A DNA stretch of 64,000 nucleotides. Source: Longimicrobiales bacterium (GTDB lineage: Bacteria; Gemmatimonadota; Gemmatimonadetes; Longimicrobiales; Gaopeijiaceae). The translations under genes and the position numbers were made by a program. The notes beneath the pieces were generated by a model, which was not told the DNA's origin, did no database searches, and saw only the letters and a list, made by a program, of their open reading frames with translations. The DNA lies in NCBI GenBank assembly GCA_965203485.1, contig OZ241892.1, forward strand, positions 3,493,017-3,557,016. The letters are read 5' to 3'. This document shows positions 11,101-40,972 of the stretch, in pieces. Every line of letters begins with the position of its first letter. The first letter of the stretch is position 1.

Positions 11101-12185
11101 CCGACACGAATGGGGTCGCGACACCGATTGCCGAGTTGGACCAGCTGGTCGAGGAGAACCCGGGCAACAAGGACGTGATCTTTCCGTACATCGGCGGCAA
11201 GGAACTCAACACCAGCCCGACGCACGCGCACCATCGGTACGTCATTAACTTCCGCGACTGGCCGCTTCGCCGAGACGACATCGGCGAGACGTGGAAGGAA
11301 GCGGACGATCATCGACGCAAGGAGTTGCGACGCCAACCCGTAGTGCCGAGTGACTATCCCGATCCCGTGGCCGCGGACTGGCCGGAACTGCTGGACATTG
11401 TGAGGAACAAGGTCAAGCCACGACGCGCTCATTTGACGCGCAACCCTATCGGGAGAAGGCGGGCGACGTACTGGTGGCAGTATGGTTCATCAGCGACACA
11501 ACTCTATGCGGCGACTGCACGCAAGCAACGCGTGCTGGCCATCAACTGCGGCGCAACCCCGCATCATGCCTTCACGTTTCTTCCGATCCGCATGGTCTTC
11601 GCCCACGTACTTGCCGTCTTCCCCCTCGACACCCACGCTGCCTTCTGCACCCTCCAGTCTCGCGTCCACGAGATTTGGGCGCGCTTCTTCGGCTCGTCCC
11701 TTGAGGATCGACTCCGCTACACCCCCTCCGACATCTTCGAGACCTTCCCGTTTCCAAATAAGTGGGAGACCCATCCGTCCCTCGAAGCCGCCGGCAAGGC
11801 GTACTCCGACTTCCGCGCCGACCTCATGGTCCGCAACGCCAAGGGTCTCACCAAGACCTACAACCACTTCCACGATCCCAACGAGGCCGCTCCGAAAATC
11901 GTCCAGCTCCGCGACCTCCACGCCGCCATGGACAGGGCGGTCCTCGACGCCTACGGCTGGACCGACGTCCCCACGGACTGCGATTTCGTGCTCGACTACG
12001 AGATCGACGAGGAGGAATGGGGCCGCAAGAAGAAGCCGTACCGCTACCGCTGGCCGGACAACGTGCGCGACGATGTCCTCGCACGCCTTCTCGAACTCAA
12101 CGGCCAACGCGCCGCCGAGGAAGCCGCCGCCTGCAAGGCCGGACGCGACGAGGCCACCCGTTCGCGGCCCGGGAAGCGCCGATGA
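8163..12185 (+). CDS. drmMI: DISARM class I N6-adenine DNA methyltransferase DrmMI
   Basis: GSHYTP, VCDPAMGSGAF (motif I), IVGNPPF (motif IV), C-terminal RYRWPD..RDDVLARLLELN. Confidence 0.9.
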   Translation: MAKVNPDIATHLEWLGFVRPTGLVVSPTTLVRAGAILQRRDNEGQARLKECLATEATGAGVLAFSRFREFANKVLDWSFSPKGYAGTADAPVPRELEVVMPDTGRAVRPHYAVRMGRDEAEWQLLVLVCERGRDFDASQARSAAAQDTMERLLRGTGAPAGILFNGEALRLVSAPKGESSGWLDFRVADMVETAGRPICAAMRLLLGETRLLSVAKDKRLAALMAESRKFQNEVSQDLSGQVLHALYELLRGFQAAHDGSGRKLLETPLRENPDEVYRGLLTLVLRLIFLLYAEERDMLPQDEVFLGGYSVAGLHKRLREDAALHPDTMDQRYGAYAQLLFLFRMVHDGVRIDTMILPPRHGVLFDPDRYPFLEGRGAQVAGGRQVHERIEPPRVSDGAVYRVLEKLLVLNGERISYRALDVEHIGSVYETMMGFRLETAKGRSVAIKAEGKHGAPATVDLDALLAQPSDKRVEWVRDRTDRKLTDKVANAVRQAGAIEALHAAVAPVVDSVATPDLIARGSMILQPSKERRSTGSHYTPRELTEPIVRDALKPVLDRLSAETGGSPTPDQVLALKVCDPAMGSGAFLVEACRQLGAALVDAWHAADAVPDGLEGEDELVFARREVARRCLYGVDRNPIAVDLAKMSLWLATLAKGLPLTFLDHALRHGDSLVGLTKRQIGAFHWDEKAPALQLGFEADRAKDDLDRVRDMRRRIREAGDGVSDRKLRAVLGEAMSATASVRRTGDLVLAAYFDEAKPKKREARRVELAACVAEGRAEEYTSWLDEQRDADPPLAPFHWEIEFPEVFERDAPGFDAIVGNPPFAGKNSMANANVRHYPLWLKQAHQQSHGNADLVAHFFRRSFDLIRPNGTFGLIATNTIGQGDTRSTGLRWICQHGGEIFKATTRVKWPGMAAVVVSVVHVAKGRASSQRFLDKRPVERITAFLFHRGGHGDPAQLKANARKSFVGSYVLGMGFTFDDTDTNGVATPIAELDQLVEENPGNKDVIFPYIGGKELNTSPTHAHHRYVINFRDWPLRRDDIGETWKEADDHRRKELRRQPVVPSDYPDPVAADWPELLDIVRNKVKPRRAHLTRNPIGRRRATYWWQYGSSATQLYAATARKQRVLAINCGATPHHAFTFLPIRMVFAHVLAVFPLDTHAAFCTLQSRVHEIWARFFGSSLEDRLRYTPSDIFETFPFPNKWETHPSLEAAGKAYSDFRADLMVRNAKGLTKTYNHFHDPNEAAPKIVQLRDLHAAMDRAVLDAYGWTDVPTDCDFVLDYEIDEEEWGRKKKPYRYRWPDNVRDDVLARLLELNGQRAAEEAAACKAGRDEATRSRPGKRR

Positions 12186-13399
12186 ACGCGCCATCCGCCG
12201 ACCGCCGCCTCGTAACCCGAGCAAGAGTCCGCAACTACCGCAACATCGCGGCCTGCGACGTGGAGCTGGCCCAACTGTCGTTGGTCGTGGGCCCCAACGG
12301 AGCCGGCAAGAGCAACTTCCTGGACGCGGTTGGCTTGGTGGGGGACTGTCTTCGCTCGTCGTTGAGCGACGCCCTTCGGCGGCGAGGCGGCGCCAGAGAG
12401 ATTGCACGGCGGACGTCCGGTCGGGCAAAGCACTTCGGGATCCGTCTTGACTACAACCTTGGAGTCGGCACGGGGCATTACGCCGTTTCCTTGGGCGCGG
12501 GCCGAGACGGCAAGCTCGACGTCCGGAGAGAGGAATGCCGGCTGGTTCGCGGGGTCGAAGCCCACTTCTGCGCACTCGATCACGGTCGGGTAAGGGAGTG
12601 CACTGTTTCGCATCCTCCGCCCGCGCCCCAGGATGACCTTTACCTCGTGCGTCTGGCGTCCGTGCCCGAATTCCGCCCCGTCTACGATGCGTTGTCGGAT
12701 GTGTGCGTCTATCGGCTCAATCCGGACGCGATCCGCGAGCTGCATGAACCCGAGCAGGGCCTTCTACGATCTGACGGACGCAATGTGGCAAGCGTATTGG
12801 AAGCCATCAAGCGTCGGTCTCCAAAGACCAAGGAACGACTGGATCGATACCTGCAAGCCGTGGTGCCGGAGTTGGCGGCCGTGGACAAGCTGGCCTTGGG
12901 TCCCTGGCGCACGCTTGCGTTCAAGAAGGTGGTGCGCGAGGGAGCGCGGCACCGACGATTCCTGGCACGAGACATGTCCGACGGCACGCTCAGGATCGTG
13001 GGCGTGCTGGCGGCCTTGCTCCAGGGCACCGGCGCAAACGTTGCTCGCCACGGCCTAGTATGCCTGGAAGAGCCGGAGGCGGCCCTTCATCCGGGCGCGC
13101 TCGAGGTTCTGTTGGACATGTTGGCGGACGGAGCGGAGAGGACACAGGTGGTCGTGACCAGCCAAAGCGCCGACCTGCTGGATCACAAGCAGATATCCGT
13201 GGACTCCATCGTGGTCGTCGGGTCGGACGAGGCCGGCGGGCGCCTCGGTCCCATCGACGAAGCCGGCAGATCGGTGATCGAGAACGGCAACTTCACCGCG
13301 GGCGAACTGATGAGAATGGAGCAACTTCTGCCGGACGAGAAGGCGTCGCGCCTGCGTCCGTCCCAGGTCTCCCTGTTCGGCGCACCAAGGTCGCGATGA
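12182..13399 (+). CDS. ABC/AAA_21-type ATPase
   Basis: ATG 12182 overlaps the drmMI stop (ATGA); GPNGAGKSN, MSDGTLR, CLEEPEAALHP, VTSQS. Confidence 0.85.
   Translation: MNAPSADRRLVTRARVRNYRNIAACDVELAQLSLVVGPNGAGKSNFLDAVGLVGDCLRSSLSDALRRRGGAREIARRTSGRAKHFGIRLDYNLGVGTGHYAVSLGAGRDGKLDVRREECRLVRGVEAHFCALDHGRVRECTVSHPPPAPQDDLYLVRLASVPEFRPVYDALSDVCVYRLNPDAIRELHEPEQGLLRSDGRNVASVLEAIKRRSPKTKERLDRYLQAVVPELAAVDKLALGPWRTLAFKKVVREGARHRRFLARDMSDGTLRIVGVLAALLQGTGANVARHGLVCLEEPEAALHPGALEVLLDMLADGAERTQVVVTSQSADLLDHKQISVDSIVVVGSDEAGGRLGPIDEAGRSVIENGNFTAGELMRMEQLLPDEKASRLRPSQVSLFGAPRSR
12359..12496 (+). repeat. 138-bp direct repeat, copy A (inside the ATPase gene)
   Basis: Identical to 15522-15659 except 2 substitutions, aligned by eye. 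Confidence 0.9.
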
Positions 13400-14004
13400 C
13401 TCTCGACGTCGCGGTCGTCGTCGAAGGGAAGGGCGAGACGTTGGCCGTGCCGGTGCTCTTGCGCAGGATCGCCGCTGTTGTGACGCCCGGCCTCGACCTG
13501 AGGATCGACGTTCTGAGACGAGGAAGGCAACAGGTCGTCAAGAAGCCGCACTTCGAGAAGTCCATCGACTTGGCCGCCCGGCGCGTCGGGCCGAAAGGGG
13601 TGATTCTGGTCCTGCTGGACGCCGACACCGATTGCCCGGCGGAGCTGGGGCCGCAGTTGGTCCGGCGCGCCGCGAGAGCCCGCCCTGATCGAGTCACGCG
13701 CGTGGTCCTCGCCAAGTCGGAGTACGAAGCGTGGTTTCTCGCGTCGGCCGGATCGCTGGCGGGAAAGCACGGAATGCGGGTGGACCTGACTGCTCCGGCA
13801 GATCCGGAGAGCATCCGGGATGCCAAGGGATGGCTGAGCCGCCATCAAGCAGACGAGCGATCGTATCGGCCCTCGGTGCACCAGACGTCGCTCACGGCGG
13901 CCTTCGACATGGCGGCCGCAAGATCCGCGCCGTCGTTCGACAAGCTGTGGCGCGACGTGGCAACCGAGTTGCGCTTGCGCTACCGCGGAGGCCCGAATCT
14001 GTAG
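13396..14004 (+). CDS. DUF4276-like (TOPRIM-type) protein
   Basis: ATGA overlap with the ATPase; VVVEGKGE, LLDADTDCP, EYEAWFLA, DPESIRDAKGWL, SFDKL. Confidence 0.75.
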   Translation: MTLDVAVVVEGKGETLAVPVLLRRIAAVVTPGLDLRIDVLRRGRQQVVKKPHFEKSIDLAARRVGPKGVILVLLDADTDCPAELGPQLVRRAARARPDRVTRVVLAKSEYEAWFLASAGSLAGKHGMRVDLTAPADPESIRDAKGWLSRHQADERSYRPSVHQTSLTAAFDMAAARSAPSFDKLWRDVATELRLRYRGGPNL

Positions 14005-14049
14005 GTTGCCGATGAGCCGGGGATGCTCGTCTTGCGAGAGCCGGAACCC

Positions 14050-14276
14050 GCTCGGGGCCGCCTCAGCGCTTCGCCAAGCTGTCGTGCCTGCGCGACTCGG
14101 GCTCTTGGATGGGTCCATGCGACGCAGCCTGCAATGCGGGGTCGCCCGCCTCGCCGGTGCACGCGGACCGCGTCCCAGAGCAGGCCGGGAGAGAATACGA
14201 CCGCCGAATCAGCGTTCCTTCATCGTGCACGCTACCGTCGAGTCCGGCAGGCGTCGACCGTGGTATGTTCCTCCTT
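14050..14276. repeat. Diverged duplicate of the rpn 5' end / drmA start region, with an internally deleted rpn remnant
   Basis: 14081-14276 matches 17961-18160 (~10 differences incl. a 4-nt indel); 14050-14080 matches rpn-internal 17342-17372. Confidence 0.9.
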
Positions 14277-14455
14277 AAGCGGAAGTTCCGGGGGCAAACG
14301 GGGCGAGCGTCTGCTGGACCGCAGGCCGTCGAGGGGCCGCTCGCTGGCGGCGGCGATGGCGCTGGCGCGGATTCTCGAGCCCGGCTCGAAGCTGGCGACG
14401 GCGCGGGGGTTGAGTCGCGAGACGCTGGCCGGCACGCTGGGCGAGGAGCTCTGCC
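14277..14455 (+). mobile_element. IS1634-family transposase fragment (remnant)
   Basis: Peptide RLLDRRPSRGRSLAAAMALARILEPGSKLATARGLSRETLAGTLGEEL resembles the conserved N-terminal block of IS1634-type transposases; no DDE core follows. Confidence 0.6.
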
Positions 14456-14659
14456 GCCCAATCGCCGCTCTCGAGCCGCTCCACGTCTCTTGGGGCCGCT
14501 CCAAGCCCAATTCCGCGAATTCCGCGCGTTCGCACCGTCGAGAGCCCGGTAAACCGCTGTGTCCCGCCAAGTTTCGTCGCGGATGCGCCAAATCCGTTTA
14601 TCCACGGGCTGCTAGCCATCCGGTCAAGGCTCGCCCGCCGCACGGACGGCTTCGCTGTT

Positions 14660-15426
14660 TGCCAAGCCGTGTAGGAGTCACCATATTCGGGAACGTTCCG
14701 ATCAATACTCCGTCCCCCCCCAGCCGTTCATTGGATTTGTACTCCCTGGACGGAACGCGAGAAACTTTCTATACCGCATGGAATATTCCCAGCGAGGCTG
14801 AAGATTTGATGTTGGAGGAAGCTCAAGGCTCCTACAGGGCCATCGTCAACGTCAAGACGCCACCCGAATTTGCGCCACCATTGTTGATCGATGTCTTGTC
14901 GGATGGCCTTGTGGCTCTAGTCGATTCCACGGGATATCGAATCAAATTGATATCCCCTGCTGGAACTATCGCAGGCACGCTGGACAGGTCGATCGAGCCT
15001 ATGGACGTAACGCCGGCGATCAAGCAAGCAGCGCGAGACCGAAGAGCGGGCGCGAGCGTCTCAGTCCTTGGAGCTGACATATCCGAGCAGGCGCGTCGTG
15101 CGCTGATGCGCCAACTCCAGGACGACGCCGCGAGTCGAATGACGTTTGCAGAGCAGATTCCTGTGATCAACAGGATGGCCGTGGACTCGGAAGACCGCAT
15201 TTGGGTCGAACGCACGGGAAGAGACGGTTTCTCCGACGGGCCGACAGACGTGTTTGACGCCGACGGTACCTACTTGGGCACGTTGTCCGCTGACGGCCTC
15301 CGCATTCCTCGCGCCTTCGGACCCGACGGGCTGATGGCGTACATCCAGCGAGACGAACTCGATTCTCCCTTCGTGCGCGTCATCAGATTGCTGGCGCTGG
15401 AGCGGTCCGGGGATCCGTCGAACTAG
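14660..15426 (+). pseudogene. C-terminal fragment of a 6-bladed beta-propeller protein
   Basis: VDSTGYRIKLI, MAVDSEDRIWVER, DVFDADGTYLG, AFGPDGLMAYIQRDELD; no credible native N-terminus or signal peptide. Confidence 0.65.
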
Positions 15427-15521: not shown

Positions 15522-15659
15522 TCGTTGAGCGACGCCCTTCGGCGGCGAGGCGGCGCCAGAGAGATTGCACGGCGGACGTCCGGTAGGGCAAAGCACTTCG
15601 GGATCCGTCTTGACTACAACCTTGGAGTCGGCACGAGGCATTACGCCGTTTCCTTGGGC
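15522..15659 (+). repeat. 138-bp direct repeat, copy B
   Basis: Matches 12359-12496. Confidence 0.9.
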
Positions 15660-16362
15660 ACGCACCCGGCCGGTGGCGGTCTCCAATGCGGGCGCGCGCA
15701 CACGGTCGCTCGTCTTGGCAGGCGCCGATGGCGTCTCGAGAGCAGGCCGCGACAGAATGCGCGTTTTGCGGATTCTCCACATGGTGGCGCACAAGAATTG
15801 CCACACTCGCACCAGTCTGCGGCTCGATGAGCTAGGACTGGCCCGCCGGTTCGGCGTCGTCGAATTAGCCTCTGGAAGCAATCTATACCGAGCAACCGTC
15901 AAGAAGGACGACGCCAGCGCAGAAGCTGTGTTGCCGGATGTCGGCTTCGGCGTTTCCCAGGTCTTGCCCGCGCTCGTTCTCCTCTACTACGTTCCCCGTG
16001 GTTCCATCGTACTGATGGAGCAACCGGAGATTCATCTTCATCCCTCGGCTCAAGGGGGATTGGCCGATGCGATTCTGTCCGCCGCCAAGGCCCGAGACCT
16101 TCAGGTAATTGTAGAGAGCCACAGCGAGCACCTCTTGCGACGACTTCAACGTCGTGTCGCCGAAGAAGAAGCGTCGTCTGATGACGTGAAGCTGTACGCT
16201 ACTAGCGTCATGGGCGGTAGGGGCGAAATCTCCGACTTGGAACTCACACCCCTTGGCGAAATTCGGAAATGGCCAGAAGAGTTCTTCGGCGACGAACTGG
16301 GCGAGATATTGGCGATCAGGCGAACCGCGCTTTCTCGCAGGTTACAACCTGGTGGCGAATAA
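15565..16362 (+). pseudogene. C-terminal half of a second ABC/AAA ATPase (DUF3696-like end), lacking Walker A
   Basis: DVGFGVSQVLP, LMEQPEIHLHP, IVESHSEHLLRRLQRR, G.I.KWPEEFF; 5' part replaced by the duplicated segment. Confidence 0.7.
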
Positions 16363-24685: not shown

Positions 24686-26053
24686 CTACGCGCGATGCTG
24701 CCGCCGCCCCAGTAGTCGCCTGCTCATCGCGGCCAGCGCCGCAACGCCCGCCGCGTAGCCGATCTGCGGGGGAACGGCCCCGCCGATCATCTTGGACACG
24801 TTGCTTCTCGACAACGGTTTGCCGTCGACCATCCGGAACTCGAACGTATCGGGAAAGCCTTGAATCCTGGCGGCCTCGCGCGGCGTGATCGTTCTTCGCA
24901 GTTCCGGATGGATGAATCGGCCGCGTCCGGGCGTATTGAAGCCGGTTGTTATCGTGCCTGCCGGCCGGTCCCAGCGCAACCGTCCGTAAATCGATGGATA
25001 CGTGTGGCCGTTCCGGTGGCAGGCGGGACGCCAGTCGTTCGGCAAGTCGAATTCGTCGTGGCTGAACAAGTAGTCGATCCTGTCGCGATTGACGTCGGAC
25101 AGCTCGGCCGGCACGTCCAGGAAATCCCGTGCCTCGCGCTGGACTAGGTCGCCAATCACCCACCGCAGGTCCCGCGCCGGACGTGCAGTGGCTTCAACGG
25201 CCGCAGACAAGTCCGGTTGCTTGTCGATGGACGCAACCAAGATGTGACGCTTCCTCGTTTGCGGCAATCCGAGACGGGTCGCGTCGATGACCGCCTCGTC
25301 CACGTGGTATCCCCTGGAGGAAAACAACGCCTTTGCTTCTTCGAGTATTTGCCGGCGATCGTGTCTGATGCCGGGAACATTCTCGACGATCACCGTCTTT
25401 GCCTTCAATGCGACAGCCAGCGCCGGCATCACGACGTAGTACATGTTGCGTGGATCCGAACGCCGGCTGACGTTGTTGGACGTCGAATGACCTTCGCACG
25501 GTGGCCCGCCCAACAAGACATCCAACTTGCCGACCGCCGCCAACAGCGTTTCGTCCACAATCCTGGGTTCGCCTACGAACCGGGCTCTTCCATTGCGATA
25601 GGAATAGCCGGTTGTCACCGACGTCCAGATGTTCCTCGACGACCAGTGTCGCGGATCAAGGTTTCTCCGGTAGACGTCCAGTGCAACCGGATTGTTGTCT
25701 CCAGCCAAGACAAATCGCGGAATCATCCCGGCCGCCAGCACCGCCTCCCGAACGCCGTACGACAGACCACCAGCGCCGCAGAACACATCTGCAATCGTTA
25801 CATGGCGCCCGTCGTCGCGAGTCGCATGTTCCACTTGTCCCCTGAGCAAGGCGTGATCGAAGCACGACTGCAACGAGGTCGTCCCCACCTCGTCGCCCAG
25901 CTCGAGTCGGGTTCGACACGACGAACGGCCGACAAGGCCACACAGGTCCAGCGTCTTGACTACCCGCGAACGAGTTTGCGAAAACGACTCCAATACGCCG
26001 TCGTTCTTCGCGATTGCGCTCGATGCCTGTCGAGCTCCGGGCATGTTGATCAC
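24686..26053 (-). CDS. DNA (cytosine-5) methyltransferase
   Basis: DVFCGAGG (I), GGPPCEGHS (IV), ENVPG (VI), QTRKR (VIII), REAARIQGFPD (IX), IGGAVPP (X); GTGA overlap with the upstream gene. Confidence 0.92.
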   Translation of the reverse strand: MINMPGARQASSAIAKNDGVLESFSQTRSRVVKTLDLCGLVGRSSCRTRLELGDEVGTTSLQSCFDHALLRGQVEHATRDDGRHVTIADVFCGAGGLSYGVREAVLAAGMIPRFVLAGDNNPVALDVYRRNLDPRHWSSRNIWTSVTTGYSYRNGRARFVGEPRIVDETLLAAVGKLDVLLGGPPCEGHSTSNNVSRRSDPRNMYYVVMPALAVALKAKTVIVENVPGIRHDRRQILEEAKALFSSRGYHVDEAVIDATRLGLPQTRKRHILVASIDKQPDLSAAVEATARPARDLRWVIGDLVQREARDFLDVPAELSDVNRDRIDYLFSHDEFDLPNDWRPACHRNGHTYPSIYGRLRWDRPAGTITTGFNTPGRGRFIHPELRRTITPREAARIQGFPDTFEFRMVDGKPLSRSNVSKMIGGAVPPQIGYAAGVAALAAMSRRLLGRRQHRA

Positions 26054-26820
26054 GCGCGCTTCAGGTCGCGGCTGTGACTCTCGAGCAACGACCGCAGCTC
26101 GCCGTCGCTCATGAACTCGAAGGCGTAGACGCTATGCAAGTGCCTCAATCGCTTGTATAGCTCCCTGATGCTACCGTCACCCGTGTTGCGAAGATAGGTC
26201 TTTTTGGTCGTCGGATCGGGATACTGAAACCTCACCAACGCACGTGCCAAGTTCCTGCACCATCCGTATCTGATCCGGATAAGTCCCGACTCGATGAAGT
26301 CGGTATGCAAGAATCTTTCTGCAAGGTGATACGCGTTCTGGGGATCGGCGTCAGGATCGTACAGCATGTCGGCTCGCAGCCACAATATCCCGAGCCGGCA
26401 CTGTCCAATGTCGTGCCTGTCAATGCCGTAGTTGGTCAGATTGGCTTCTCGTCCCTTCGGACCGCCGTGGCGCGCTTCGATGATGTCGGCCAGCTGCTCC
26501 ACCGCCAGCCATCTCCAAAAGTCCGCTGAAGCCGCAACGCTGGGCGGCAACTGGAGTTCCCTGTGGAGCATCGAACACGCCAGCCTGTCGAAGTTGAACG
26601 CATCGACCTTGCGACCGTGCTGGACGAGATTCTCACGTAGCTTGAGAATAGAAGCACACGCTCCGTCGACCACTGCAGCATCCCATTCCGACGCGAGTTC
26701 GATCGTGCCGAAGTCCCGCGCCAGAAGCTTCCATGGGCGGCCTCGGCGCCGGTTGGTGACCGCAACCCGCGCCTTTTCGCTGGAAAGCGTCCTGACTCTA
26801 CTCGAGTCATCTACCATCAT
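26050..26820 (-). CDS. DUF6339-like protein
   Basis: LHRELQLPPSVAASADFWRWLA, RLGILWLR...YDP...AYHL, RELYKRL pattern recalled for DUF6339. Confidence 0.6.
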   Translation of the reverse strand: MMVDDSSRVRTLSSEKARVAVTNRRRGRPWKLLARDFGTIELASEWDAAVVDGACASILKLRENLVQHGRKVDAFNFDRLACSMLHRELQLPPSVAASADFWRWLAVEQLADIIEARHGGPKGREANLTNYGIDRHDIGQCRLGILWLRADMLYDPDADPQNAYHLAERFLHTDFIESGLIRIRYGWCRNLARALVRFQYPDPTTKKTYLRNTGDGSIRELYKRLRHLHSVYAFEFMSDGELRSLLESHSRDLKRA

Positions 26821-26841
26821 GAACCTCGCTCAAGCCCCACG

Positions 26842-27798
26842 TCACGCGACAACGCCGATGATCTTGGCGATATGCGACCGAAGCGCCAGCAAGTCCTCCT
26901 CCTGTCCCAAAGCGCGAATATCGGCGTACGCCATGCCGCTTGCGCTCGCGAGCTTGCCATAGACCTGTCCAACCAGGGTCTCATTGTCGGACGGATCGGG
27001 ATCAACCGACGTTCCCCTAAGCACCTCGCTCCATATTTGGGCGATGATCTCGGACGCCAACATCTTCCACGCGAAATCGCTCTTTCCCGTCACCGCGTTC
27101 ATCGAGTTGAGGCGTTCCTCCGCCTTGTTCATGTAGACAGTGAGGACATCGCCGATCGGATGCGAGAAGCGATTCTCGTCCGTCGCATCGTGCCACTTGA
27201 TGGCCCACAGCAGCTCCGCAGGGTACTCCGTGTCCCCGCCGAACTCGCGCCAGCTAAACGGAAAGGCCGCCGCATGGACACGTTGCCGAATCGCAAATTC
27301 CCGCCTGCACAACACTTTTCCGAAGTCGAGCCCGTGCGCCGCGAGAATCGGATCGTCGGCGACGACGCGAACGGCCAAGACGAATTCCAACGGGCCGCCG
27401 GTCTGCACCGCGTCCATGTCGCTGGCCGCCGGCGACCACCGCGCAGGCACGTCGGCAACGGGCCAACTACCGAACGTCTTGTACATCTTCAACTGGCGAC
27501 TGCGCACGGACACGCCGAGCGCCATCTGATCCGCAGACAACGAAAGGCGGCTCGCGACGTCGGCAAGGCCGTTGAGCGCAAGGACGAATCGCGGTTCCAA
27601 TGGACGGTTCGCATCTGCCTGTTCAAGATAGTAAGGCAATTCGGTCTCGGGCCGATGAGAAAACGGAGAGAATCGGCAATCCTCGAGCACGCTGTCGAGC
27701 AGGTTGGACAACTTGTTCGGGTTGACTCCGTCTCCAAACGGCGGAAGCATCCGCCGTTCGGTTCGGCGACGCCCGGATGTGTTTGGCAAGACGCTCAA
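26842..27798 (-). CDS. Hypothetical protein (318 aa)
   Basis: Protein-like composition; TTGA overlap with the upstream gene and 21-nt gap to the next gene. Confidence 0.75.
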   Translation of the reverse strand: MSVLPNTSGRRRTERRMLPPFGDGVNPNKLSNLLDSVLEDCRFSPFSHRPETELPYYLEQADANRPLEPRFVLALNGLADVASRLSLSADQMALGVSVRSRQLKMYKTFGSWPVADVPARWSPAASDMDAVQTGGPLEFVLAVRVVADDPILAAHGLDFGKVLCRREFAIRQRVHAAAFPFSWREFGGDTEYPAELLWAIKWHDATDENRFSHPIGDVLTVYMNKAEERLNSMNAVTGKSDFAWKMLASEIIAQIWSEVLRGTSVDPDPSDNETLVGQVYGKLASASGMAYADIRALGQEEDLLALRSHIAKIIGVVA

Positions 27799-29729
27799 GC
27801 TGCGGGCTCCCCGTGCTCTGGCGAGGGGGCGGGCGCAAGGCCGTCCGTCGTGGGCGGGTCCGGCTGTGCCGTGACCTCGATGTCCACGCGAGCAAAATAC
27901 TCACGACTGAACGGTTCAGATCTGGCGTCTACGACGGTCTCGCGGTTCTTGTGAACCATGATCATTGCGTCGTGCCGGCTGCCGGCAAGGTCAGCGTCCT
28001 CCCCGTCTACGAGCATCGACGCCAAAGCCAGCCGACCGGAGCCGTCCCTGCGCATGTTGTCGTCCAGCACGACGGCGGGCATGACCGCCATGAGAGCGCT
28101 GACTGCCTCTGCCGCGGCATCGTCTCTCAACGTGACCCGCACGCGAACCGTCGCGACGGAGGAGAGGCCGGCGTTCTCTCGTCCCTCTTGAATCCGCATT
28201 TCGAACGGATCGGCGACGGGCGGCGGCGACGGCGAGGGACGATCCAGCTCCCTCGTTGCCATCGCGCGCGCGAGAATGTGCTGGAGTCGTCGGGACCCTC
28301 CGGCGGCCGGAGGTTCCGGCACGGGATTCAGCTCCTTGAGAAACTTCTTCGCGTGCTTCTTGACGCGACGCACAATCCTTCGAACCAAATCTTGATACAG
28401 ACCGCGCTTCTCCGTATCGTCGGGATAGGCATCCCGCAGTCGTTGGGAATTGGGATTCCACGTGTCGTGCGAGGGCGGCTCCGAAAGATGAAGCGCTTCG
28501 TCGGCGTCGTCATGGCCGACAAAAACGCCGACGCTCTTCTTGTCTCCGCCGCCCGAAATCTTCAGGTATTCCACGACCATCAGAGGTCCACTGCGAATCA
28601 AGGCGATCGTGTTGTCGAGCGATTCGTCCGGCGAGTCGTCGTCCGGAGTCGGCTGGTCCGGTGCCAAGCCCTTTAGCGCAAGCGTCCCGGGGCGAAGGCC
28701 GTTGAAGCGACGAAGTTTCTGTCGCGTCTCCAATGGCCCCTCGGGCGGAACGCCGTGTTCGATCATGGTGTAGCATCGCACGTACTCGTCCAACCTGGCG
28801 ACGCCCCGAGGGTCCGGCGCGGGAAGCTGCTGTCCGTCCGCCCACAAGTCCACGGTCAGCTTGTTGGAAAGCAGACGCGGCCACCACCAGCGCTCGACGG
28901 CGTCACGGAATTGATCAAGATCAATTGACGATCCCACGATCATGATCGACGTGCCCAAGTCCTCGGGAGCCCGCGTAAAGCCGATGCGTTCGGCGATCTC
29001 ATGCGCCATGTCGTCGACAATCGGCTTGCATTCCGGCTGGCCGGCCTCTCTTGCTTCATGAATGCCAAAGAGGGCGCGGCCCGTGCACTTCCGGCCCTCC
29101 CACGTGTGGCCGTCGAAGGTGGCACAGGCGAACAAGCGGGCATGGTGGCCGCCCGTGTCGTGGCTGGGTTCGAATATGGAATAGACGACGAACATGTTGC
29201 AGTTCGATGCCTCTTCGTAGACTGCCTTGCCCAGGCCGTATGATCCGCCCCTGCCCGAAGCGACGTTCGTGCGGTCTTGCCCGAGCGACAGGCACAGTTC
29301 CTCGAAGCGATCCGTCCGGTCCCGCGCGTCGTAGCCCAAGCCGCACGTGTTTCGGTCCTCGACGACGGTTACGGCTACCCGCTCACCGTCCTTCAGGCGA
29401 GTCAATGCATTGGGAGACGCCAAGCCTAGTTGCCTCAATCGCGCGACGGGGGAATCGTCGGCGTCGAAGCCGAGCAACTCTCGGAACGCCAAGGCCTCGT
29501 CTGGCAAGAGCGTCACGTTCAACACCACAACGTCGGTCTTTTGGTCGGGCAAAGTAGCGTCGACGCTGTTCTGAATCGCCTCACGCGCTACGCGCGAGGT
29601 CGTGTCGAGACGAGACCCCTCGAGCACGTGACGCCGGGCCGTAGCCCGGATTCGCTCGTTCGGGTTCTCCTCGACGAACAGCCACGCTGGCTGCGGAAGG
29701 GGGGGGGGGGGGGGGGGGGGGGGGGACAT
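27795..29729 (-). CDS. GHKL (HATPase_c / MORC-sacsin-like) ATPase-domain protein
   Basis: REAIQNSVDA (N-box), VEDRNTCGLG (G1-like), GRGGSYGLGK (G2), GTSIMI (T/G3-like); N-terminal poly-Pro from a poly-C tract. Confidence 0.7.
   Translation of the reverse strand: MSPPPPPPPPLPQPAWLFVEENPNERIRATARRHVLEGSRLDTTSRVAREAIQNSVDATLPDQKTDVVVLNVTLLPDEALAFRELLGFDADDSPVARLRQLGLASPNALTRLKDGERVAVTVVEDRNTCGLGYDARDRTDRFEELCLSLGQDRTNVASGRGGSYGLGKAVYEEASNCNMFVVYSIFEPSHDTGGHHARLFACATFDGHTWEGRKCTGRALFGIHEAREAGQPECKPIVDDMAHEIAERIGFTRAPEDLGTSIMIVGSSIDLDQFRDAVERWWWPRLLSNKLTVDLWADGQQLPAPDPRGVARLDEYVRCYTMIEHGVPPEGPLETRQKLRRFNGLRPGTLALKGLAPDQPTPDDDSPDESLDNTIALIRSGPLMVVEYLKISGGGDKKSVGVFVGHDDADEALHLSEPPSHDTWNPNSQRLRDAYPDDTEKRGLYQDLVRRIVRRVKKHAKKFLKELNPVPEPPAAGGSRRLQHILARAMATRELDRPSPSPPPVADPFEMRIQEGRENAGLSSVATVRVRVTLRDDAAAEAVSALMAVMPAVVLDDNMRRDGSGRLALASMLVDGEDADLAGSRHDAMIMVHKNRETVVDARSEPFSREYFARVDIEVTAQPDPPTTDGLAPAPSPEHGEPAA
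29699..29725. repeat. Homopolymer G27 (C27 on the coding strand), starting in codon 2 of the GHKL gene
   Basis: Direct count: ATG T-C(27)-TT CCG on the minus strand. Confidence 0.9.
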
Positions 29730-30466
29730 TCGGAAGGCTGGCGCTGGATCAGTGGAAGGGAACGAAGCGGCGCAAAAAAGCTACGAGACTCCGACGCGGC
29801 CCGCAAGTCGCCGCCGGACTCTCAAACCGCAATAGAAATGTCCGGTCATCGGGATGGTCGTGGGGGTGCTTCGGCTCTCTGCGGATGGGTCGAAGGACGT
29901 GCGAGGCGGGGCCGGTCACCTCATCGCTCCGGATGAGGCCGCGATGGCCGGGGTCGCTGGGCGTGTCGGACGCGGCGAGCCGTGCGAGGCGACCCTCCCG
30001 CCGGACGATGGCCGGCTCGACCTCGTCGCGGATCTGCTTGCGCCACGGATGGTTCGGTTCCGGCTTTCGGGGCCTTCGGATGCGAACGCGGCGGAGTCGG
30101 CGGCGGGACGGAAAGCGTAGCTCCCCCGACAGACGCCACTTGACGACGATCCGCAACCCGGGCTGCACGTCGGCCGCCCGGTGTAGAGCGACAATCAGGA
30201 TGAGACGTCCGGGATCGCGACGGGAACGATGTCAGCGGAGTTGGACTGGGCCAAGGCGAAGGCTTGGGCATAGGACGAAGCGAGAACCACGACCCTGGCG
30301 TTCGCCGAGTTGCGCAAGCCTCGAGCGGCCGTCGCAGCCTTGGGTGCTCCAGGAAGCGGCGTCGAAGCTGTGGCGATACCGCAACCGGGGCCTGGCACAG
30401 TCCGCGTGGTTCCACTGCCTGCAATGGGCGCCGGCTCCGGGGCTCGGGCCGGTCAAGAAGGCGGCT

Positions 30467-38948: not shown

Positions 38949-39560
38949 TCACTCAAACAGTCTTCCAAGCCATTGCGAGAACTTTCTGCAGAGTTGCCCG
39001 TCGGTACTCAAGTCGCGCTTCCCAATGGCTGCACCCATGGGACCCGGTTCCTTTCTCGTTGCAAGCCAGGCGTAGACCTCCGCTTTTCGCATCTTCTTGG
39101 CAGTGAACCGCCGACGCTCTTTCGGGATGCCCTGGATGTACTGTCGTGCCAAAGGCCAAACAGCGTCGTCCTCGGGGATCATCTGCGCTACGAAGTCTTC
39201 GAGTTCGCCTGTTGACGTGTTGTCCGGCATCAACCAAACTCCGACGCGGGGCTTGTTGCCGACAACGGTTCCGGACGGTCGTGGCTTCTCGGGCAAATCT
39301 ATCGAAATGCTTCCGAGCCGGTTTCTGATTGAGTTCCACCGGCCGTCCAGGTCGTCGTTGGCATCCACAAGAAAACCAACAGCAGACCGTTCGGGTGCCT
39401 TGATCTCTCCGGTCATTGATTTGGTCACCTCAACAATACCGTCCTTGACCTTAACTTCGAATGGAGTGGCCAGGTCATGCCTTTGGCAAACGTGGCCTAC
39501 AACATGCTTGTCGTCTTCACCTTCGACGATAAGAACTCGAGACGCTGTTCTTGTGGGCAT
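38949..39560 (-). CDS. DUF3226-like (TOPRIM-type) protein
   Basis: LIVEGEDD, GFLVDAND, VGVWLMPDN..GELEDF, KAEVYAWLA. Confidence 0.75.
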   Translation of the reverse strand: MPTRTASRVLIVEGEDDKHVVGHVCQRHDLATPFEVKVKDGIVEVTKSMTGEIKAPERSAVGFLVDANDDLDGRWNSIRNRLGSISIDLPEKPRPSGTVVGNKPRVGVWLMPDNTSTGELEDFVAQMIPEDDAVWPLARQYIQGIPKERRRFTAKKMRKAEVYAWLATRKEPGPMGAAIGKRDLSTDGQLCRKFSQWLGRLFE

Positions 39561-39570
39561 TCTCACGTGC

Positions 39571-40710
39571 CTACCTGACTTCAATGCCTTGCTTGGCAGC
39601 CACTTCCAGTTCTTCCTCGACATAACTGACAGACGTCGTGTCGTCGTTATGACGCTCAATACGAACGAGTATCCCGTCGCTGTTCGATTCGACGGCGGCC
39701 TTGGCAAAGCCACGCACACAAGAAAAACTGTGCGTCGTAGCAAGCACCTGCACGTCGTTCTCTTCGGCGGCTTGCAACACCATACGCCAAAAATCGTAGT
39801 GCACCGAATGATGAAGACCGTTTTCGACTTCGTCAATAAGCAGAAAACCATGTCTGCTGTTGGATAACGACAACGACACGCCCAAGAGACGTGTCGCTCC
39901 GTCTCCGAGGCTCTTCAACGGAACTGGGTCGCGATGGCCCCGAAGCTTCACCACGAAACGCTGGCCCACAGAACGTCTGCCGTTGCCCACGGCGCGCAAC
40001 GCTACGCGCTCCATGGCCTTGCCCGCTACCAATCGAAGCGCATCAACAGCCCGAGTCTCGTCGTCGGTAAGCACAACGCTGTCCCAGAGGTCCGCCAACA
40101 CATGATTGGGTGTCACGCCTGGACCGAACAATCGGCATTCCAGTGCTTGGGGCAGATCGTCCTCGTCGTTCGCTCGCCGATATCTCCGATACATGCGGTA
40201 GCGATCGATGTCGATGCCTTGTGTCAACAAAGGCCACGGAACCTCCCTCTTGCCGCCACCATATCTTGCTTGAAGCATCAAGGATTCCGATGGTTCTTGA
40301 GGAAACGATTTGCCAAACAAGTCAACGTGCTCTTCCCTGAGAGGCACCAGCTCGACGGCCAAGACATCGTCGTCGCGACCGTCTGCTGGGCCGATTGCGA
40401 TCTTGGAGCCCAAAGATGCTTCTCGGCCAAAAAAAAGGGCCGGCAAATCGGGAACCGGCACCTTGTCTGCATCGTCGTCTACTACCGTCGATAGTTCCTC
40501 CCTTCCACGCAACAGCGTCGACAGAACCGCTTCGCGACCTCGAGCCGCGAAGGCATGGACCGCTTCCAGGACGGTCGTTTTTCCCGAGGAGTTTCTGCCT
40601 GCCAGCAATGTGACCCGGCCAAGGCGTGGAATGCACATGTCGTTGATTCCCCGAAAGCCCTTGACGGACAAGCTGGCGAGGTGCAACTGGTTTGTCTCGG
40701 CTCTAGCCAT
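39571..40710 (-). CDS. ABC/AAA_15/21-type ATPase
   Basis: GRNSSGKT, LGDG, LIDEVENGLH, ATTHS. Confidence 0.85.
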   Translation of the reverse strand: MARAETNQLHLASLSVKGFRGINDMCIPRLGRVTLLAGRNSSGKTTVLEAVHAFAARGREAVLSTLLRGREELSTVVDDDADKVPVPDLPALFFGREASLGSKIAIGPADGRDDDVLAVELVPLREEHVDLFGKSFPQEPSESLMLQARYGGGKREVPWPLLTQGIDIDRYRMYRRYRRANDEDDLPQALECRLFGPGVTPNHVLADLWDSVVLTDDETRAVDALRLVAGKAMERVALRAVGNGRRSVGQRFVVKLRGHRDPVPLKSLGDGATRLLGVSLSLSNSRHGFLLIDEVENGLHHSVHYDFWRMVLQAAEENDVQVLATTHSFSCVRGFAKAAVESNSDGILVRIERHNDDTTSVSYVEEELEVAAKQGIEVR

Positions 40711-40972
40711 GGTGTCCCGCCGGAGTCTTGTGGGTGCCGGACGCCTATCGTCAGAGGTTGAGTCTATCGCAGGCACCTTCACCGGTCAACCAAGTCGGCA
40801 AAGACGCGCAGCTGTAGTCCGCCTCGGCCTTGCCCTGCGCGAGTTGCTCCCCCATCGAGCCCTCATCGTCTCCGCGATCACGTAGCTCTTGGAGGGTGCG
40901 CTCCCGTACGCGGCTCCCCGACCACAGCGGCGCCGACGCCGACGCCGACGCCACAGCGAGGCCGAAATCCCC

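Follow-up and report, generated by a model that had tools for sequence, protein, structure and literature searches.

A GHKL ATPase cassette with a putatively exchangeable DNA-modification writer, remotely related to the candidate defence system PDC-M33, in a Longimicrobiales bacterium

Introduction

The paraMORC2 proteins are GHKL ATPases of predicted restriction-modification (R-M) operons, a family defined by an ExxxH motif (Iyer, Abhiman and Aravind 2008, main text portions, PMC2292703). Operons of paraMORC type have mostly stood as predictions since 2008, and paraMORC function is still described as proposed in the portion consulted of the 2026 Tiamat preprint. In this study, a four-gene cassette headed by an ATPase of this type was characterized in a Longimicrobiales bacterium (GCA_965203485.1). 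It occupies positions 24686..29729 of the DNA stretch analysed, hereafter the window, which comprises 64,000 nt (contig OZ241892.1, 3,493,017 to 3,557,016, forward strand).

Several described systems are comparable in composition. PDC systems of PADLOC are predictions, and the genes from which PDC-M33 was selected lie within BREX, DISARM or type I R-M systems (Payne et al. 2024, 10.1101/2024.01.29.577857, in part); M33 is unmentioned in the consulted portion of that main text, and the supplements may describe it. No paper naming PDC-M33 was found in the literature searched, subscription papers and bioRxiv supplements being outside its scope. BREX types 1 and 4 share their ATPase-containing core and differ in the writer (DNA-modifying enzyme), the PglX methylase giving way to the PAPS-reductase BrxP, an established swap similar in kind to that reported below (sections of PMC12914056). 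VcSduA, a paraMORC3 Shedu protein, is likewise a GHKL clamp, with experimentally shown anti-phage activity (PMC12137116), but it combines the clamp and a PD-(D/E)xK nuclease in one polypeptide and lacks a writer.

Organization and conservation of the cassette

The cassette consists of four minus-strand open reading frames (ORFs), with TTGA and GTGA overlaps and one 21-nt gap:

27795..29729, minus strand: gene 1 (A), GHKL ATPase, paraMORC2-like, with a PDC-M33A match and invariant residues
29699..29725, minus strand: C27 homopolymer, candidate phase-variation switch, directly 3' of the gene 1 start codon and in frame in the assembly
26842..27798, minus strand: gene 2 (B), rapidly evolving probable adaptor and, by transitivity, a remote homologue of PDC-M33B
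26050..26820, minus strand: gene 3 (C), DUF6339 protein, PDC-M33C homologue, candidate DNA reader
24686..26053, minus strand: gene 4, C5 cytosine DNA methyltransferase with intact motifs

Class I DISARM with an inserted HEC-01 pair lies on one side, and a type II restriction endonuclease (REase)/methylase pair on the other. The co-directional layout and these flanks had been described in the initial annotation, and ORF coordinates and motifs agreed with it. Of the four products, Pfam assigns two, gene 3 as DUF6339 and gene 4 as a C5 methylase. The G+C content of the cassette is 0.59-0.64, against 0.69 for the genome.

Neighbourhoods were counted in 78 related loci (79 with the window), labelled here with L-numbers, of which 71 had enough flank. 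All four genes were present in order in 55/71 loci from several phyla. Gene 2 was found in 65/71 and gene 3 in 68/71, the three genes A-B-C (the trio) being adjacent and co-directional, and divergence was correlated among the cassette genes (Spearman 0.77-0.87, 45 loci, kin not being independent). Sixteen of 1,100 randomly sampled genomes from three phyla carry the ATPase, with a writer within ~6 kb in 16/16; these writers are C5 methylases in 14 cases and PAPS-reductase-like in 2, directly adjacent in 13. Distribution is patchy (3/60 relatives), and some copies are on plasmids. Haloarchaea have two to three trio copies around one C5 methylase. Two to three divergent copies around one writer or face to face were also seen in L072, L073, L078, L143, L147 and L105, an arrangement that suggests paired modules.

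Because the four-gene order is kept, a writer is near in all randomly sampled relatives, spread is patchy with plasmid copies, G+C content is low and the setting is a defence island, the cassette is somewhat more probably than not the core of a writer-coupled immunity system resembling BREX or R-M, with an effector step that its sequence does not reveal.

Affiliation with PDC-M33 and paraMORC2

Gene 1 matched the PDC-M33A model at E 7e-9 (residues 44-171, 33 bits), its relatives reached 117 bits, and its profile aligned with bona fide PDC-M33A at 98.8% over 333 columns (hhalign). PDC-M33C was matched by 92/111 aligned gene 3 members, the window gene 3 itself giving no match at E 0.01, and the gene 3 profile scored 92% against bona fide PDC-M33C. 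Gene 2 did not match the PDC-M33B model, and its direct profile comparison with bona fide B gave 0.3-2.3%; the two were linked through an intermediate myxobacterial, actinobacterial and archaeal clade with 96.2% and 96.5%, mismatched controls remaining at ≤1.3%. A bona fide PDC-M33 on a Priestia plasmid (L082) scores 696/273/314 bits for A/B/C. The likeness extends to gene order, sizes (627/289/~250 model positions) and a small gene upstream (L082:7728-7958), as in 24/71 loci of the window clade (L017-L057). In these loci the gene, upstream of the ATPase, encodes a conserved basic protein of 75-90 aa without a Pfam match; it is a probable controller and is absent from the window.

Judged from these comparisons, genes 1-3 form a distant branch of PDC-M33, and the earlier proposal of an undescribed system does not hold for the cassette core: relatives match PDC-M33A and PDC-M33C, gene 2 is linked to PDC-M33B and gene 1 fits paraMORC2. 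The differences lie in the window scores (33 bits for A, no model match for B and C) and in the PADLOC model, which has no writer gene. Such scores suggest that the rules of PADLOC would miss the window cassette.

The ATPase of gene 1 comprises N-terminal ATP-binding boxes, an E417-P-x-x-H421 motif, a Pro-rich linker and a C-terminal domain without an assigned role. GHKL motifs I-IV are intact (R49 E50 Q53 N54, D125 G130, G162 G167 K168 and G259, invariant in 65 rows), GHKL boxes having been read in the initial annotation as well. E417 and H421 are invariant in the same number of alignment rows, and ExxxH was present in 7/7 clade representatives, its placement in an S5 fold being putative. By this motif gene 1 fits the paraMORC2 family of Iyer 2008; the window branch differs in having no helicase or RE-fold partner, and neither genes 2-3 nor a sulfur-type writer appear in the main text portions of PMC2292703. 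No PD-(D/E)xK nuclease domain was matched in gene 1.

Gene 4 shows motifs I, IV (PC, C186), VI (ENV), VIII, IX and X in order (56 sequences compared), in agreement with its earlier assignment as an m5C methylase. Its putative target-recognition region (310-385) has a median identity of 58%, against 42% for the core, and its top PADLOC model is DruM (293 bits).

Genes 2 and 3

The gene 2 model has an N-terminal immunoglobulin-like (Ig-like) beta-sandwich (~33-173) and a mixed to helical C-terminal half. Fold searches with it, which answer the earlier call for hidden nuclease folds for gene 2 only, listed generic beta-sandwiches over residues 25-173 and no nuclease family among the listed matches, the C-terminal half being barely covered. 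Invariant catalytic residues were absent from gene 2, and none were evident in gene 3, in which W102, R117 and W147 are conserved. Sequence searches of the PDB with the profiles of genes 1, 2 and 3 gave nothing significant. In the ESM Atlas, gene 2 fell in unnamed clusters only, and the match of gene 3 to DUF3038 (0.92, low recognition) is taken as a weak lead only. Four proteins, which fall into three divergent kinds (25-33% identical), carry the Ig domain of gene 2 fused to DUF6339. The DUF6339 family counts 3,073 clusters at 50% identity, and no paper in the literature searched names it. Gene 3 is a candidate DNA reader and gene 2 a probable adaptor.

Comparison with other modification-coupled systems

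No BREX core gene matched genes 1-3, the cassette ATPase is GHKL and not P-loop, and the methylase is C5 and not adenine-specific. A C5 methylase as the presumed self mark is shared with type II Druantia and class II DISARM. Type II Druantia has the DruE helicase with DruF and DruG beside DruM; no Dru match besides DruM was found among the 21 proteins of the window that were scanned. The DISARM next to the cassette belongs to class I, has a DrmMI of its own and is not conserved as a neighbour. Mza-type operon profiles had no match in the 78 loci and the window, in 29 sulfur-type loci (see below) or in this genome, and 5/16 random relatives were positive. By composition the cassette is predicted to work like a writer-coupled system of BREX or R-M type, and it falls outside Mza-type operons, type II Druantia and class II DISARM.

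Neighbouring nucleases and Vsr

Neither family scans nor conserved neighbours revealed a nuclease, the flanking ORFs of the 78 loci having been scanned in part; in this respect the initial annotation stands. Its statement that Vsr is lacking applies to the window copy only, as Vsr is near 38/71 loci. A DrmA/B/C set is near 1/78 related loci (a partial DrmA-like match being near a further one) and none of the 78 holds a relative of the neighbouring REase, which speaks against the idea that the cassette borrows DISARM components. A functional connection with the type II pair upstream was likewise rejected from the counts in these loci. A DUF3883-type gene is near 6/79 loci.

The frequency of Vsr would fit a repair module, the GHKL protein acting as a MutL-like clamp that assists Vsr, or a different repair nuclease, in mending damage from the resident DNA modification. 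MutL of Escherichia coli works with Vsr (portions of PMC2292703), and a C20 tract at G000:C1:2516940 (G000:C1 being a contig of this genome), ~75-80 nt upstream of a mutS-like gene and in frame with it, points to possible switchable mismatch repair, so repair genes may be switchable too. Nevertheless, Vsr is missing from the window copy and from the two complete relatives nearest to it, m5C methylase and Vsr are both absent from the sulfur-type clade, and the spread is patchy and island-like; this explanation is regarded as improbable, the least favoured of those considered. An unlinked Vsr of this genome (G000:C1:480322-480936) scores high on the cassette-type Vsr profile.

The trio could also be a guard or backup that does not itself read DNA marks but watches over the writer, or over an R-M system nearby, and halts the cell by abortive infection once a phage has inhibited what it watches. 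No toxin domain was recognized in Pfam, PADLOC or NCBIfam scans, and the writer is often without a recognized cognate restriction enzyme to be guarded, which makes such a role hardly more probable than repair.

A sister clade with a probable sulfur-type writer

This genome carries a second trio of a sister clade:

G000:C1 ~2,528,050-2,532,955 (L080:10051-14955), minus strand: second GHKL trio with a PAPS-reductase-like gene; relatives L091-L094, L104-L127, L131 and L132

In this clade the methylase is replaced by a PAPS-reductase-like gene (25/29 loci), with a cysteine desulfurase in 15/29. The two writer types did not mix: C5 methylase or Vsr occurred in 0/29 sulfur-type loci, and sulfur genes in 0/79 methylase-type loci. 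The writer shows SGGxSS and Cys motifs and matches SspD (E 6e-9), PAPS_reduct being below cut-off; a PDB sequence search with it gave nothing significant. The desulfurase scores below the DndA cut-off, and the ATPase of the clade is GHKL and not P-loop. L094 additionally has a TIGR04095-like PLD/SF2 helicase and a DndD-like ATPase, neither of which reaches the cut-off. From these data the sister clade is a candidate new sulfur DNA-modification system, its writer being a probable sulfur-inserting enzyme. The writer swap is the newest element of the present findings, and no paper combining phosphorothioation with a GHKL/MORC ATPase writer swap was found in the literature searched. A methylation-based self/non-self defence had been proposed from the window; modification-coupled defence is retained as the probable reading, and methylation as the sole mark is not.

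These loci also bear on the possibility that the trio assists the writer, as a loader or processivity ATPase complex like BrxC, SspC or DndD, with restriction left to unrelated genes. Phosphorothioate synthesis needs a PAPS-reductase protein and an ATPase (sections of PMC12914056), and DndC was not found in 4/5 sulfur-type genomes tested. L131 and L132 hold only the writer and trio among housekeeping genes, and the lack of evident catalytic residues in genes 2 and 3 would fit as well. On the other side, the C5 methylases found with the trio are of several unrelated kinds and frequently lie on the opposite strand, and enzymes of this class normally work without helpers; the candidate switch in the ATPase gene, described below, moreover suggests a cost. 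An assisting role is regarded as unlikely, if less so than a guard.

Homopolymer tracts and candidate phase variation

A shift of 1 or 2 bases in the window C27 tract leads to a stop at codon 47 or 49. L001 (C18) and L003 (C22) have tracts at the same site, both out of frame, and in six more close-clade loci gene 1 contains tracts of 11-21 nt elsewhere, at three to four different sites. In total, 9/17 close-clade loci carry gene 1 tracts of 11-27 nt (2 in frame, 7 out), and genuine tracts in gene 1 were found in 0 of the other 62 loci. Of the tracts of at least 10 nt, 9/11 are inside gene 1, which makes up ~10% of the DNA examined, and none occurred in genes 2-4 in 196 kb; two L046 tracts flanking an N gap were excluded. 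A C16 tract is present in the ATPase gene of this genome's second trio, and two of its relatives have tracts in the ATPase gene as well.

The genome as a whole has 46 C/G tracts of at least 10 nt, bimodal in length (42 at 14-30 nt), many of them at the 5' ends of secreted-protein-like and DNA-methylase genes as judged by eye from translations. Placement of this kind is the pattern of contingency loci. Examined for length heterogeneity within a population, contigs from 4 sequencing runs (≤2 samples, 1 study) break on either side of the C tract, in a comparison by a tool that skips repeats, and tract lengths may have been altered by sequencing or assembly error. An assembly artefact, a suspicion raised by the 46 genome tracts, was rejected because relatives carry tracts in the same gene.

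Since tracts occur in gene 1 of 9/17 close-clade loci and in none of genes 2-4, the C tract probably works as an on/off switch of the ATPase by phase variation. A switch in this gene suggests a cost, as expected for a costly immune system. Nothing relevant on homopolymer phase variation in sponge symbionts was found in the literature searched.

Tract-bearing adenine methylase genes near 624966, 2166441 and 3323431 of G000:C1, like both GHKL genes, are probable contingency loci. At G000:C1:2327773-2332599 there are about six near-identical 0.9-kb units, each with a short Cys-containing ORF and C24-27 after the ATG.

Other features of the window and the genome

The HEC-01A/B pair (AAA ATPase and DUF4276, 11762-14004 of the window) lies inside the class I DISARM between drmMI and drmA, followed by a 467-aa ORF without a family match (14023-15426) and a HEC-03B-like ATPase piece (15565-16362). 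A PDC-M38A/B candidate system (AAA ATPase and DUF3226) is at 38949-40782, minus strand. Upstream of gene 1, positions 29734-30300 contain short dispersed repeats that match other contigs too, with a similar motif near G000:C1:469375.

A protein with RNA polymerase alpha C-terminal domain/sigma-70 region 4 (weak MzaA match) is beside the methylase-type L058-L061 and L065 (downstream) and the sulfur-type L106, L120, L122-L124 and L126, and sigma-70 domains lie within the ATPase ORF of L142. A truncated gene of another related GHKL clade adjoins a type IIG-like gene at G000:C1:323043-323945. In the FastTree tree branches are long and the methylase clade is poorly supported, and the order of events was not taken from it.

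Discussion

In the favoured reading of a writer-coupled immunity core, the methylase would mark self DNA and the trio would act on unmarked DNA as an ATP-gated clamp with a reader and an adaptor. The clamp may block unmarked DNA or bring in any nuclease that is available. Restriction of modified DNA in the manner of type IV systems was rejected, as the trio travels with its own writer.

A more specific version is proposed only tentatively: the GHKL clamp, Ig-like adaptor and DUF6339 reader would restrict unmarked DNA without a classical nuclease and be re-couplable to unrelated self marks, the sister clade would be a GHKL-driven phosphorothioation-like system, and both would be slippage-switched. 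Nuclease-bearing relatives exist, and two other relatives of the second trio have the tract in the writer gene; both observations weigh against the simplest form of the favoured reading.

If the sulfur-type clade writes phosphorothioates, a GHKL-driven route would join those of Dnd, Ssp, Tdp and BREX-4, which are listed in the consulted sections of PMC12914056. As the cassette is small, stands alone in some genomes and occurs intact in cultured non-pathogens such as Pyrinomonas methylaliphatogenes K22 (L050) and Massilia eurypsychrophila (L018), the role of prokaryotic MORC-like ATPases with DNA marks becomes directly testable.

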